A stretch of 23,240 nt of DNA, from UHGV virus genome UHGV-0143097; one strand, written 5' to 3'. Origin of the DNA: a virus. Positions 5,210-10,505 of the stretch are shown piece after piece. The position numbers were made by a program, and so were the translations under genes. Position 1 is the stretch's first letter, and each line of letters begins with the position of its first letter. A model generated the notes under the pieces. That model was not told the origin of the DNA. It worked only from the letters and a program-made list of their open reading frames with translations, and made no database searches.

Positions 5210-5455
5210 ATGAAAGCGTATTGGGACTCTTTAACCAAAGAACAGCAGGGCGAGTTGGCCGGAAAAGTTGGCTCAACACCTGGCTACTTACGGCTGGTTT
5301 TCAATGGCTATAAAAAAGCCAGTTTTGTGCTGGCTAAAAAACTTGAGCAATGCACGTCAGGTGCAATTACGAAATCTGACTTAAGACCGGATATGCGCGT
5401 CAGCTGTATGGTCATGTGTATACGGCAAAGACCGGCACACTGTCAGAACTGGTGA
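5210..5455 (+). CDS. Cro/Ner-like small HTH regulator
   Basis: 81-aa ORF divergent from the repressor, with GGAGG at 5195-5199; its odd Cys-rich C-terminus runs into the truncated sheath gene, so the 3' end may derive from a deletion junction. Confidence 0.55.
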   Translation: MKAYWDSLTKEQQGELAGKVGSTPGYLRLVFNGYKKASFVLAKKLEQCTSGAITKSDLRPDMRVSCMVMCIRQRPAHCQNW

Positions 5456-6132
5456 ACGCAGGTGACCAGTTTAACCAGCAACACATCACCCTGGCGGGGT
5501 ACGAAAAAGAGACCCAGACGCCTGCCGACGAGCTGGCGGCAAGCCGTACCGCCCGCGCAGCGGTGTTTATCCGCAACGATCCGGCACGTCCCACGCAGAC
5601 CGGTGAGCTGGTGGGTATGCTGCCTGCGCCGAAGGGGAAACGGTTCACGATGACCGAGCAGCAGACCCTGCTGTCTCATGGCGTGGCAACGGCGTATGTC
5701 GAAAGCGGGGGGCTGCGCATTCAGCGTGATGTCACCACGTACAGGAAAAATGCTTACGGGGTTGCGGATAACAGCTACCTCGACAGCGAGACGCTGCATA
5801 CCAGTGCGTATGTACTGCGCAAACTGAAATCCGTCATTACCAGTAAGTACGGGCGTCACAAGCTTGCCAGCGACGGTACCCGCTTTGGTCCCGGTCAGGC
5901 GATTGTCACCCCGGCGGTAATCAAAGGGGAACTGCTGGCAACCTACCGTCAGCTTGAGCGTGCGGGGATCGTGGAAAACTACGAACTGTTTAAGCAGTAC
6001 CTGGTTGTTGAGCGTGATGCCAGCGATCCGAACCGCCTGAACACGCTGTTCCCGCCTGACTATGTTAACCAGTTGCGTGTTTTTGCCGTGGTTAACCAGT
6101 TCCGTCTTCAGTATTCAGAGGAGTCTGCATAA
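5416..6132 (+). pseudogene. Tail sheath protein, C-terminal fragment (Mu gpL / P2 FI-like), 5'-truncated
   Basis: 238 aa resembling only the C-terminal part of contractile-tail sheath proteins (full length is typically about 400-500 aa); no head or N-terminal sheath sequence upstream; stop overlaps the tube gene start. Confidence 0.6.
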
Positions 6133-6488
6133 TGGCCCGTATCGGGGGAACTTGTTATTTCAAAATTGACGGTCAGCAGCTATCGCTGACCGGCGGCATT
6201 GAGGTGCCCATGAACAGGACGGTCAATGATGACATCATCGGCCTGGACGGTTCAGTGGACCGCAAAGAAACTCACCGTGCGCCTTATGTCAAAGGGACCT
6301 TCAAGGTGCCGAAGAATTTTCCGGTGAGCAAAATCACCTCGTCTGATGAGATGACCATCACTGCCGAGCTGGCGAACGGTCAGGTCTATGTATTGTCGTC
6401 CGCCTGGCTGCACGGAGAAGCGAACCATAATGCCGAAGAAGGCACGGTTGATCTTGAGTTCCACGGTGAAGAAGGGGATTACCAGTAA
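6132..6488 (+). CDS. Tail tube protein (Mu gpM-like)
   Basis: 118-aa ORF immediately after the sheath fragment, with overlapping stop/start codons on both sides. Confidence 0.65.
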   Translation: MARIGGTCYFKIDGQQLSLTGGIEVPMNRTVNDDIIGLDGSVDRKETHRAPYVKGTFKVPKNFPVSKITSSDEMTITAELANGQVYVLSSAWLHGEANHNAEEGTVDLEFHGEEGDYQ

Positions 6489-6757
6489 TGAAAGAGCTTG
6501 AGTTAAAGAAACCGATTATCGCTCATGGTGAGACACTCTCCGTACTGGAGTTTGATGAACCCACCGGGAAGGATGTCCGCGAGCTGGGGTATCCCTACCA
6601 GATGAATCAGGATGAGTCCGTCAGACTTCTGGCGCATGTGGTGTCGAAATACATTGTGCGGCTGGCGAAAGTGCCGCAAAGCTCTGTCGACCAGATGTCT
6701 CCGGCAGACCTGAATGCAGCGGCGTGGCTTGTGGCTGGTTTTTTCCTCCAGGCCTGA
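6488..6757 (+). CDS. Tail assembly chaperone (short form)
   Basis: 89-aa ORF between tube and tape measure; contains the slippery heptamer T TTT TTC at 6739-6745 near its 3' end. Confidence 0.65.
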   Translation: MKELELKKPIIAHGETLSVLEFDEPTGKDVRELGYPYQMNQDESVRLLAHVVSKYIVRLAKVPQSSVDQMSPADLNAAAWLVAGFFLQA

Positions 6758-6906
6758 CGGCTGAATACCTCACTGATCGCTTCTTTGACTGCGCCAGCTA
6801 CTGGCGCATTAATCCCTTCGAATTGCTGAATATGCCGATCAGTGAAATTCCCTTGCTGGTCAGTCAGGCAAACAGGATAGAGCAGGAGAAACGCACACAT
6901 GGCTGA
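6488..6906 (+). CDS. Tail assembly chaperone, predicted -1 frameshift extension product
   Basis: A -1 slip at 6739-6745 joins the zero frame to the overlapping ORF ending at 6906, as in lambda G/GT and P2 E/E'. Confidence 0.5.
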
Positions 6907-8786: not shown

Positions 8787-9164
8787 ATGGGTCTGTTACA
8801 TGCCATTATAGGTAATGCCGGTGAAATTAATGCATCAGATGCACAACAGGAATTAGGGGCTGTTTTAGGTGAGGGAGAAAATGTCGAACTTGCCTATAAA
8901 CTCATTCGTGACCAAATTATTCTGACTAACAGAAGGTTAATTTTTATTGATAAGCAGGGTGTCACAGGGAAAAAAGTCGAGTATCGTTCGATTCCATATA
9001 AATCTGTGACAAACTTTTCTATTGAAACCGCCGGGCATCTTGATCTTGATGCTGAAATGAAGATATGGATTTCTGGTATTGCAGAACCGATAAAAAAACA
9101 GTTCAGTAAAGGAGCAAACATTTATAAATTGCAGGCCCATCTGGCTCAAAAAATAGCAGGGTAA
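8787..9164 (+). CDS. Moron: 125-aa bacterial PH-like (DUF1696-type) protein
   Basis: ATG at 8787 with GAAGGGAAA RBS; AT-rich by eye relative to flanking tail genes; motifs RRLIFIDKQGVTGKKVEYRSIPY and LDAEMKIWISG resemble small bacterial PH-domain proteins (from memory). Confidence 0.6.
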   Translation: MGLLHAIIGNAGEINASDAQQELGAVLGEGENVELAYKLIRDQIILTNRRLIFIDKQGVTGKKVEYRSIPYKSVTNFSIETAGHLDLDAEMKIWISGIAEPIKKQFSKGANIYKLQAHLAQKIAG

Positions 9165-9188
9165 ACCTTACATTAATTTATGTCTTTC

Positions 9189-9214
9189 ATGCCCACTTCG
9201 GTGGGCATTTTTAT
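9189..9214 (+). terminator. Rho-independent terminator of the moron
   Basis: Perfect hairpin ATGCCCAC-TTCG-GTGGGCAT followed by TTTTAT. Confidence 0.65.
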
Positions 9215-9227
9215 ATCCGGAGTTTAT

Positions 9228-10505
9228 ATGACGTGGAAAGGCAGGCTTCAGGACGCGTCATTTCGCGGCGTGCCGTTTAAGGTCGAAGAAGAAAGTGCGG
9301 GAACAGGTCGCCGTGTGGAAACGCACGAATACCCGAACCGCGACAAACCCTATACCGAAGATCTGGGAAAAGTCACTTTCCGCCCGTCCATCACGGCTTA
9401 TGTGGTGGGAGATGACTGCTTTGACCAGCGCGATCGCCTGATTGACGCGCTGAATAAACCCGGTCCCGGCACGCTTGTCCATCCGACATACGGTGAGCTG
9501 AAAGTCTGTGTTGACGGGGAAGTTCGGGTCAGCACATCGAAAAGTGAAGGACGTATTGTCCGCTTTGACCTGAAGTTTGTCGAAGCAGGAGAGCTCTCTT
9601 ACCCCACATCAGGTGCGGCGACGGCGCAGACGCTGATGTCATCCTGTTCTGCACTGGATGACTGCATCAGTGACAGCTTCAGCGGTTTCAGTATCGATGG
9701 CGTGGCGGATTTCGTGCAGAACGACGTTATCGGTAATGCCTGCACAATGCTTGGGTATGTTTCTGATGCGATGAAAGTGGTGGATTCTGCCGTATCGGAT
9801 GCCGCCAGGCTGTTGCAGGGGGATATCTCGGTACTTCTGCCGCCGCCATCGTCAGGCAAAAATTTCGTTGAGCAGGTGCAGAAAATGTGGCGTACCGGGA
9901 AACGCCTTTATAGTAACGCCAGCGACCTAGTCACCATGATCAAAACGCTTTCCGGTATCAGCCTCGGCAGCGATCTGCAACCGCGCGGCGTCTGGAAAAC
10001 GGACAGCAAAACTACCGCCACGGCAACGCAGCAGCGCAACGTGGTTGCCAGTACCCTTCGTACTACCGCAATCAGCGAAGCGGCATATGCCGTCACCCGA
10101 TTGCCTGCGCCCACATCTTCCGCAGTGATGCAGAATGCCGCAGTGGGGCAGTCAACAACACCCGCGCAGAGCACCGGCTGGCCTTCCGTCACGCATCCGG
10201 CACTGAACAATGCACCGGCGGTGAAAAACACGGTTGATCTGCCAACGTGGGAAGAACTGACCGACATTCGCGACACGCTGAATACGGCAATTGATAAGGA
10301 GTTGTCCCGTACAACCAGTGATGCGCTGTTTCTGGCGCTGCGCCGGGTGAAAGCAGATCTGAATGCGGATATCAACACGCGCCTTGAACAGTCTGCGCGG
10401 ATCATTCAGCGCACGCCGGATGAGGTTTTACCCGCGCTGGTGCTGGCGGCGACCTGGTTTGATAACGCGGCGCGTGACGCGGACATTACCCGGATATTAT
10501 CGTGA
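9228..10505 (+). CDS. DNA circulation protein (Mu gpN-like)
   Basis: 425-aa ORF after the tape measure, in the Mu N position; start placed at the ATG at 9228 (GGAG upstream) because the ORF-track start at 9180 lies inside the terminator hairpin. Confidence 0.6.
   Translation: MTWKGRLQDASFRGVPFKVEEESAGTGRRVETHEYPNRDKPYTEDLGKVTFRPSITAYVVGDDCFDQRDRLIDALNKPGPGTLVHPTYGELKVCVDGEVRVSTSKSEGRIVRFDLKFVEAGELSYPTSGAATAQTLMSSCSALDDCISDSFSGFSIDGVADFVQNDVIGNACTMLGYVSDAMKVVDSAVSDAARLLQGDISVLLPPPSSGKNFVEQVQKMWRTGKRLYSNASDLVTMIKTLSGISLGSDLQPRGVWKTDSKTTATATQQRNVVASTLRTTAISEAAYAVTRLPAPTSSAVMQNAAVGQSTTPAQSTGWPSVTHPALNNAPAVKNTVDLPTWEELTDIRDTLNTAIDKELSRTTSDALFLALRRVKADLNADINTRLEQSARIIQRTPDEVLPALVLAATWFDNAARDADITRILS

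Follow-up and report, generated by a model that had tools for sequence, protein, structure and literature searches.

The 23,240-nucleotide stretch analysed here (virus genome UHGV-0143097; hereafter the window) carries a block of Mu-like contractile-tail genes next to lambdoid early genes. With a probability of about 0.85, positions 1-10493 are the remnant of an e14/SfV-family prophage integrated at icd that has undergone two deletions, one of which (deletion 1) exemplifies a recurrent process anchored in the cro gene. The left junction of the tail block reveals a deletion hot spot that recurs and is very precise, and that probably belongs to a wider group of such sites. As an object the tail fragment is unremarkable: another decayed e14/SfV-type prophage beside a decayed lambda/21-like prophage.

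The remnant prophage and its two junctions

The features that define the remnant are as follows (ORF, open reading frame).

50-1177, minus strand: e14-type integrase (intE-like, 375 amino acids; phrog_7244/phrog_1), left end of the first prophage
4445-5119, minus strand: ymfK/cohE-type CI repressor (LexA-like S24 peptidase; PF00717), apparently intact
5210-5455, plus strand: truncated cro (ymfT), an 81-residue fusion ORF with codons 1-61 native and 20 out-of-frame sheath codons
5392-5394: left deletion junction, cro ...GACCGGATAT joined to GCGCGTC... of the sheath gene, microhomology TAT
5395-6132, plus strand: 3' half of the tail sheath gene, residues 254-498 of 498, out of frame with cro
6132-6488, plus strand: tail tube gene, intact (PF10618, phrog_185; 118/118 residues identical to SfV orf12)
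6488-6906, plus strand: tail assembly chaperone and its -1 extension (PF10109, phrog_166 at 6488-6757; phrog_32181 for the -1 ORF)
6899-8734, plus strand: tape measure gene, intact, 611 amino acids (PF10145, phrog_28; 98.9% identical to SfV orf14 over 611/611 residues)
9228-10505, plus strand: Mu N-like DNA-circulation/baseplate hub gene, 3'-truncated (PF07157, phrog_184)
10487-10493: right junction, DNA-circulation gene ...GGACATTA joined to CCCGGATATTATCG... of the exo flank, imperfect microhomology TA(T/C)CCGG

The left arm (62-5394) comprises int, xis, yfdR/Q/P homologues, the ymfK repressor and the ymfT cro. It has the hallmarks of the e14/SfV family, with an e14-type int/xis beside icd and the ymfK/ymfT immunity pair following yfdR-yfdQ-yfdP. 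The family combines a lambdoid genome layout with an HK97-type head and a Mu-type contractile tail. At the nucleotide level int/xis is 90% identical to K-12 intE/xisE, cI/cro (ymfK/ymfT) is 98.5% identical to K-12 e14, and the immunity region is 98.5-99.7% identical to those of e14, GN4143, isolate 362 and DLI.5a. The arm as a whole is 96-99.7% identical to the full-length prophages of GN4143 (in icd) and isolate 362. In both of these, left arm and tail block are collinear within one genome, in the order int-xis-yfdR/Q/P-ymfK-ymfT ... sheath-tube-chaperone-tape measure-(PH domain)-DNA circulation. Public scaffolds 99.97-100% identical to the window run from rluE-icd through a gene for an 822-residue TIR-domain protein into the integrase, which places the element at the e14 attachment site. 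In the source-like scaffolds L005/L006, icd lies upstream, and the layout is that of the GN4143 prophage at icd.

Tail-derived DNA occupies 5392-10493 on the plus strand and holds part of the sheath gene, the tube, chaperone and tape measure genes, a PH-domain gene and most of the DNA-circulation gene. An earlier note on this DNA, made from the letters alone, had named five of these as tail genes in Mu order on the plus strand; the ORF listing together with Pfam and PHROG profile searches bore this out, with all five at or near the coordinates proposed for them. Their order is that of the Mu-like module, sheath (L)-tube (M)-chaperone-tape measure-DNA circulation (N), Mu L-like and N-like being the annotations of these genes in the SfV record. 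The block is 97-98% identical in nucleotide sequence to SfV, SfII and SfI as well as to many E. coli prophages, and it matches a single uninterrupted stretch of 5.1 kb in the prophage of isolate 362.

The sheath ORF (5416-6132) matches only the C-terminal part of its profiles (PF04984, 57-168 of 168; phrog_165, 263-493 of 493); PF17482 is matched as well. The piece is 99.2% identical in amino acid sequence to residues 254-498 of SfV orf11 (498 residues). The sheath had been described as 5'-truncated and abutting a Cro-like gene, and this stands: homologues have 498 residues, of which 1-253 are gone. The DNA-circulation gene is truncated too, which the earlier note had missed. Its ORF spans 9180-10505 (441 residues) with a likely start at 9228, as in the gene calls of the public scaffolds, and the product follows SfV orf15 from residue 6 to 427 of 447 before ending in a few foreign codons (...TRILS and a stop), foreign sequence replacing the last 20 codons. 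The retained tail ORFs contain no internal stops, and only these two genes are clipped, at the junctions. The chaperone, 97.8% identical to its SfV counterpart, carries the slippery heptamer T TTT TTC at 6739-6745, as does SfV at an identical site, and an overlapping -1 frame (ORF 6724-6906) stays open to 6906, ending at the tape-measure start. A programmed -1 frameshift is predicted from the letters, in keeping with the earlier description of the chaperone as frameshifted.

Both breakpoints were mapped, as the earlier note had advised, by alignment with intact homologous clusters. Microhomology, which it had proposed to look for at about 5400-5460 and 10500-10515, was found as TAT at 5392-5394 and as TA(T/C)CCGG at 10487-10493. 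In three-way alignments of the left junction, intact cro (PhiR29_1 as reference) reads ...GACCGGATAT then CTATCC and the sheath parent ...GGAGCTAT then GCGCGTC; cro is cut after codon 61 and read through out of frame into sheath DNA. Against the collinear full-length relatives the missing interval is 18.1 kb (GN4143) or 19.2 kb (isolate 362), which agrees with the large internal deletion that the abutment of sheath and Cro had been taken to imply. Between these two points the relatives have their replication, Q, lysis, terminase, head and head-tail genes.

At the right junction the DNA-circulation parent (SfV) reads ...GGACATTA then TCCGGCG and the exo-flank parent (BE311) ...GCACCTA then CCCGGATATTATCG, while the window has ...GGACATTA then CCCGGATATT. 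The module had been said to end exactly at the exo stop; the junction instead lies 24 nucleotides past that stop (10513-10515), inside the first ~10 codons of the DUF1317 gene 3' of exo. This junction alone joins DNA of two different phages, and it is read most simply as a deletion (deletion 2) between neighbouring prophages. Direct reading of the sequence found no insertion sequence (IS) element and no attachment-site (att)-like repeat at either window junction; each has a few shared nucleotides and no IS, att site or long repeat, the pattern of a microhomology-mediated deletion. An 8-nucleotide direct repeat, CCGGATAT, occurs at both junctions; it was set aside as better explained by a shared site class, CCGGRTA^/GNTA^. 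At 10487-10497, TA is followed by CCCGGATAT (exo flank, DUF1317 start), and the end in the retained orientation, CCGGGTA^, resembles the CCGGATA^ of cro.

Across both junctions the sequence recurs at 99.97-100% identity in two metagenome scaffolds from ENA and in a Logan assembly, and this agreement of three independent assemblies shows that the structure is not an assembly artefact. Carriers of it are represented by samples SAMN10267802 and SAMN10267800 and by run SRR4408039. The exact 81-residue Cro fusion product was found on eight public contigs. A 44-mer across the left junction had no exact match in the GTDB one-genome-per-species contigs, a collection that omits within-species variants, and neither junction, in this combination, was present in any of 5,426 complete E. 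coli genomes.

A recurrent breakpoint in cro

An independent cro-to-capsid deletion in E. coli DLI.5a has its left end within 1 nucleotide of that in the window. A protein search with the Cro fusion of the window as query brought up many proteins that match Cro exactly as far as residue 61-62 and then continue in unrelated sequence. Among public E. coli and E. fergusonii sequences, 51 distinct non-artefact fusions diverge after residue 61-62; contigs of 10 kb or more carry 33 of them, and contigs of 100 kb or more carry 10. The first foreign residue has an A-initial codon (I, T, N, K, M, S or R) in 51/51, so the retained cro DNA always ends ...CCGGATA. About six fusions in the same search break elsewhere in cro; codons 62-66 and earlier ones are almost unused. 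The site is as follows.

Window 5385-5398: cro 3'-end hot spot, intact form AAGACCGGATA^TCTATCCG, recurrent break ...CCGGATA^TC
Letters of the site: core given as GGATATCTATCC / CCGGATATCTATCC, with GACTTAAGACCGGATA before TCTATCC and TCTATCCGAAAGATTAG after GGATA

The foreign tails, in or out of frame, derive from Q, RusA, DUF968, methylase, capsid, DNA-circulation, fibre and other genes. When well-anchored tails were mapped to reference prophages, 22/23 lay downstream on the same strand, 1.2-28 kb away (23/24 if the poorly anchored row P0116, left out here, is counted). The homology between the partners and the cro site amounts to 2-9 nucleotides, as with CCGGATA in rusA and CCGGATATC in capsid. 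Reading at the nucleotide level covered seven junctions (window, DLI.5a, L022, L023, L165, L166 and L152); L165 mirrors the window, its cro being joined near the end of the DNA-circulation gene with baseplate and fibre genes retained. The retained cro end is sometimes ...CCGGATATC instead of ...CCGGATA, and junction ends fall into an 'A' class (14), an 'ATC' class (9) and a few 'AT', which hints at two ends 2 nucleotides apart. These events are clean deletions with short terminal homology, one nucleotide-fixed end and variable partners.

Truncated cro copies are rare, and among them the ...CCGGATA^TC site dominates: IMG/VR holds 2 truncated against more than 120 intact copies, and 15 of 1330 E. 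coli records gave a partial match across a 160-nucleotide window centred on the cro site. The abundant Klebsiella cro allele (GCCGGATATCTATTCC) showed no fusion at residue 61-62, which indicates that either the flanks of the site or an E. coli factor matter. No account of the cro hot spot turned up in searches of the literature.

One cluster, P0018 (Logan contig ERR11264780_659, L151), proved to be a chimera of cro with a Nextera mosaic-end adapter, CTGTCTCTTATACACATCT, and was excluded from the count. It represents a 335-member cluster that probably holds the intact e14 Cro, a database artefact; the adapter is joined right after GGATATC, an incidental Tn5 insertion at the hot-spot site. An assembler or adapter artefact, the case in P0018, was rejected as the source of the hot spot in view of the 10 fusions on contigs of 100 kb or more.

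Re-used breakpoints were then surveyed in K-12 e14 and 122 IMG/VR loci against intact references. The breakpoints of the two K-12 e14 deletions and of several IMG/VR remnants coincide with one another and with partners of the cro hot spot, and these further shared sites serve as left ends in some events and as right ends in others.

O-like gene site: GCCAGGGTA^ACCG; K-12 e14 deletion A, L023/P0012, L137
Portal site: GTGGTA^CCGAAG; K-12 e14 deletion B, L084
Head-region site, prohead-protease gene (GN4143 annotation), L162 28190: GGCCGGTTCGTTA^ACCGGCC; L084, P0015
rusA site: CTCCGGATA^ACCGG; P0013, L134
Second O-gene site: L134, P0034
Coincident breakpoints: L162 (GN4143) 15725, 16372, 18103, 27052, 28190 and 39712; L020 (K-12 e14) 9127 and 10861

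The right junction of the window is re-used as well. In K-12 DLP12 the int/xis side is joined to the exo flank at the same nucleotide, equivalent to a deletion of L004 4645 to 6001 relative to BE311; a DLP12 variant joins an internal intD position to that nucleotide, and the site is also a junction in IMG/VR loci L145, L146 and L148. Nearly all re-used junctions fall on TpA (K-12 e14 deletion A shares GGT, one base short). G stands at -4 in 15/16 parental sites, mostly in a GNTA^ context, and each of the five hubs with the most re-use is a GNTANC hexamer: GATATC, GGTAAC, GGTACC, GTTAAC and GATAAC. As a pattern in the letters, with small counts that are partly linked through microhomology, the GNTANC motif is a lead.

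Mechanism and competing explanations

In the proposed mechanism, a site-specific break, nick or polymerase stop would occur at the cro TpA, possibly with a 2-nucleotide stagger, and the end so fixed would be joined downstream by microhomology-mediated end joining or template switching. Deletion 1 ran from cro codon 61/62 to mid-sheath within one prophage, with a 3-nucleotide microhomology join. Both remnants share the same map orientation, so the whole window can be explained by deletions in a head-to-tail array, which would have arisen by tandem integration of a second prophage at icd; phage 21 and e14 share an attB in icd, as Wang et al. 1997 are cited in PMC12803456. Deletion 2 would start 60 nucleotides before the end of the DNA-circulation gene and remove baseplate, fibres and the prophage end together with the int-xis-ea region of the second, lambda/21-like prophage, the ends being joined at a TA-CCGG microhomology.

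One alternative, in line with the chimera described in the earlier note, takes the block for a piece of an unrelated Mu-like myovirus that illegitimate recombination placed in the early region of a lambdoid siphovirus prophage. Lambdoid early genes do lie on both sides of the block, and the right-hand neighbour has remnants of lambda-type late genes. The left flank, however, belongs to the same phage family as its native early arm: full-length prophages at this icd locus carry it collinear with the tail block, at 96-99.7% identity, and an insertion would need both junctions to reproduce the native order and orientation of the family by chance. SfV, SfI and e14 natively combine these modules (PMC3636060). 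SfI and SfV are myoviruses with lambdoid early regions, and in SfI the left, structural half is SfV/e14-like and the right, early half lambda-like (PMC3636060). Lambdoid early genes with a Mu-like tail are thus the native state of the family, and the left junction is not a siphovirus/myovirus chimera; tail genes beside early genes need not signal one. An insertion of foreign tail DNA is very unlikely.

That the tail block serves as a working, domesticated device such as a tailocin or tail-like particle, or else is an assembly artefact, is hardly credible. The retained ORFs are intact and nearly identical to genes of active phages, but the sheath is halved, the hub gene is clipped, and tail terminator, baseplate, spike and e14-type fibres are lacking, for which reasons the block is unable to assemble a tail; the agreement of the three assemblies speaks against an artefact. 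The window contains no full-length sheath, no baseplate genes (Mu P, gp45-48) and no e14-type fibres, nor a self-sufficient tailocin set of sheath, tube, terminator, baseplate, spike and fibre with a release system. The absence of head, baseplate and fibre genes of the tail module had been seen correctly before. The lysis genes at 19.4-20.6 kb are part of the second prophage remnant. Lying directly 3' of the remnant cro, the block would at most be transcribed from the PR promoter upon SOS cleavage of the retained CI, and such transcription would converge on the PL transcript of the neighbour; a promoter scan did not call PR, for which a weak TTGAAG-16-TAATAT is visible by eye alone. Intact ORFs with 98-100% identity to working phages point to recent loss rather than domestication. 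In place of a complete morphogenetic and lytic gene set, the late region retains only the equivalent of L162 (GN4143) 32674-37342. The element is a remnant of an e14/SfV-family member, not a viable member.

Could the cro breakpoint lack a physical cause, random deletions being filtered by selection for cI with Cro 1-61 and for loss of ymfL/ymfM? The mapped partners all lie at least 1.2 kb downstream, so that ymfL/ymfM are always lost, and cI is always kept. Selection nevertheless cannot give single-nucleotide precision (...GGATA is kept in 51/51), other breakpoints of the family also recur to the nucleotide and in both orientations, and only the 15/1330 E. coli records mentioned above have any partial match across the cro site. 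Such filtering is quite unlikely to account for the site. Site-specific recombination or transposition (by the e14 Pin invertase, by an integrase at secondary sites, or as IS-mediated adjacent deletion) would fit the fixed left end, the TpA at every junction, the small inverted repeat CGGAT-ATCT-ATCCG and the Nextera (Tn5) adapter that is joined at GGATATC in one public contig. Yet 7/7 junctions read show no IS sequence, IS end or recombinase site; the partners share TpA and a variable 2-9 nucleotides of homology without a common core or half-site; and the coexistence of A- and ATC-ending classes is unexpected from a fixed-core exchange. This origin is considered unlikely.

Several specific agents were tried and rejected. 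An EcoRV-type blunt cut (GAT^ATC) is at odds with the retention of the next A at every junction. For type I-E CRISPR/Cas3 an AAG protospacer-adjacent motif is present, but the direction and imprecision of degradation do not fit; the type III EcoP1 site AGACC lies at the wrong cut distance. No half-site similarity to a Hin/Gin/Pin-type site was seen, the hot spot being unlike the gix/hix/pix half-site consensus. A stable hairpin at the cro site would have 5 bp only (z -1.2). Topoisomerase II-type (gyrase) cleavage or an unnamed nuclease is a candidate; Topo-Seq data gave no usable entry at this position.

Some points weigh against a twice-deleted e14/SfV-family remnant with a cro-anchored first deletion. 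All public contigs with the structure end ~60 nucleotides after nleH, near the right end of the window, and the right chromosomal boundary is not visible in them. BE311 has the same lambda-type early region inside an SfV-like prophage, so that the exo side need not be siphoviral. The count of 51 fusions leaves out 32 weaker matches of the protein search, and detection through proteins reaches only deletions in which the N-terminal part of cro survives.

Since one cro nucleotide starts ~50 independent deletions and other breakpoints of e14, DLP12 and relatives are re-used, the decay of E. coli prophages may follow defined fragile sites. A broader reading, offered tentatively and with the odds somewhat against it, is that E. 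coli lambdoid prophages are inactivated largely by breakage at a few defined sites and not at random positions. These would be TpA steps in GNTANC-type palindromes, often CCGG-flanked, with e14-type cro (3' end) as the dominant hub and the exo flank as the second, cut by an E. coli-specific host or phage activity (nuclease, topoisomerase-like enzyme or fork barrier) and healed by microhomology. The matter bears on what inactivates prophages and on why cryptic e14 and DLP12 look as they do; if true, it would amount to a quasi-programmed route of prophage domestication.

Neighbouring features and comparison with known systems

Two further genes adjoin or interrupt the tail block.

8787-9164, plus strand: PH-domain (bPH_1) moron, 125 amino acids (PF08000, E 6e-48), overlooked in the earlier reading
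10513-11193, minus strand: lambda-type exonuclease, full length (PF09588, phrog_149), 97% identical in nucleotide sequence to BE311

The moron fills the slot that separates the tape measure gene from the DNA-circulation gene; a TATAAT box precedes it at ~8746-8751 and, in a terminator scan, a terminator-like hairpin follows it at 9189-9208. The slot is variable: it is empty in SfV and GN4143, holds the same gene in isolate 362, and holds a different, 176-residue gene in BE311 and DLI.5a. PADLOC gave no match for the moron or the adjoining small ORFs. In the left arm, 3013-4272 carries a YfdP-like gene (called at 3013-3375 in the public scaffolds) and small ORFs matching phrog_3311 and phrog_3195; what had been counted as a first immunity module is therefore not a repressor/cro pair, the small ORFs having no known function. 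In L005/L006 the 822-residue TIR-domain protein is encoded at 2150-4618, between icd and int, where K-12 e14 has ymfD-ymfE-lit; this looks like a variable cargo/defence slot at the attL end of e14-family prophages.

The exo gene is the first retained gene of the neighbouring lambda/21-like remnant (10.5-23.2 kb), whose early region reads exo-bet-gam-kil-cIII-ral-sieB-N, then cI-cro. Its cro (16309-16509) is directly followed by rusA (16641-17003) and ylcG-Q, with cII, O, P, ren and most nin genes deleted; the rusA-side parent at this cro/rusA junction reads GCCGGTA^AAGGGC. Further right lie a porin, a P21-type holin, a lysozyme, Rz and bor. The NmpC/OmpC-like porin gene (17798-18880) and the bor/iss lipoprotein gene (20671-21012) are both typical lambdoid cargo. 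Near 21976 the stub of a Nu1-type terminase small subunit (21908-22090) passes into the C-terminus of a lambda-type fibre, 3' of which the nleH type III effector kinase gene (22309-23190) indicates a host of the attaching-effacing type of E. coli. In other strains the nleH-cif module lies within lambda-attB prophages, and a look-up of nleH returned only such other loci.

SfV, SfII and SfI have the same block order at 97-98% nucleotide and 98-100% amino acid identity and likewise combine lambdoid early genes with a Mu-like tail. The window differs from them in keeping only 5.1 kb of a roughly 11-kb tail cluster and in lying at icd with an e14-type integrase, not at thrW; SfV, moreover, lacks the PH-domain moron between tape measure and DNA-circulation genes. 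K-12 e14 occupies the same icd locus and is likewise a deletion-riddled SfV-type prophage. It retains an intact cro, partial terminase, portal and baseplate J genes, ymfQ and fibres and has lost sheath through DNA circulation, whereas the element in the window kept exactly what K-12 e14 lost and lost the rest; the junctions differ. The second remnant resembles DLP12 and the lambda/21-like effector prophages of attaching-effacing E. coli, its content being DLP12-like (exo...rusA-ylcG-quuD-porin-essD-rrrD-rzpD-bor, partial Nu1, partial fibre and nleH). In DLP12, however, the exo-flank site is joined to the int/xis region at argU, and in the window to the tail gene of another prophage.

Aberrant excision giving Spi- and lambda-bio phages is a short-homology-dependent illegitimate recombination in E. 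coli. The cro events likewise have junction homologies of 2-9 nucleotides without IS or att sites. To our knowledge, a classical deletion hot spot consists of two fixed sites that have a repeat of 9-13 bp in common. Deletions anchored at a nick site occur at the M13 and pC194 origins, where a Rep nickase sets the fixed end; we know of no Rep-like nickase for the cro site. Illegitimate recombination in E. coli has been described as an alternative end joining resembling microhomology-mediated end joining (PMC11372144). In contrast to classical illegitimate recombination, the cro end falls on a fixed nucleotide in each of ~50 independent natural events, and several other sites are re-used.

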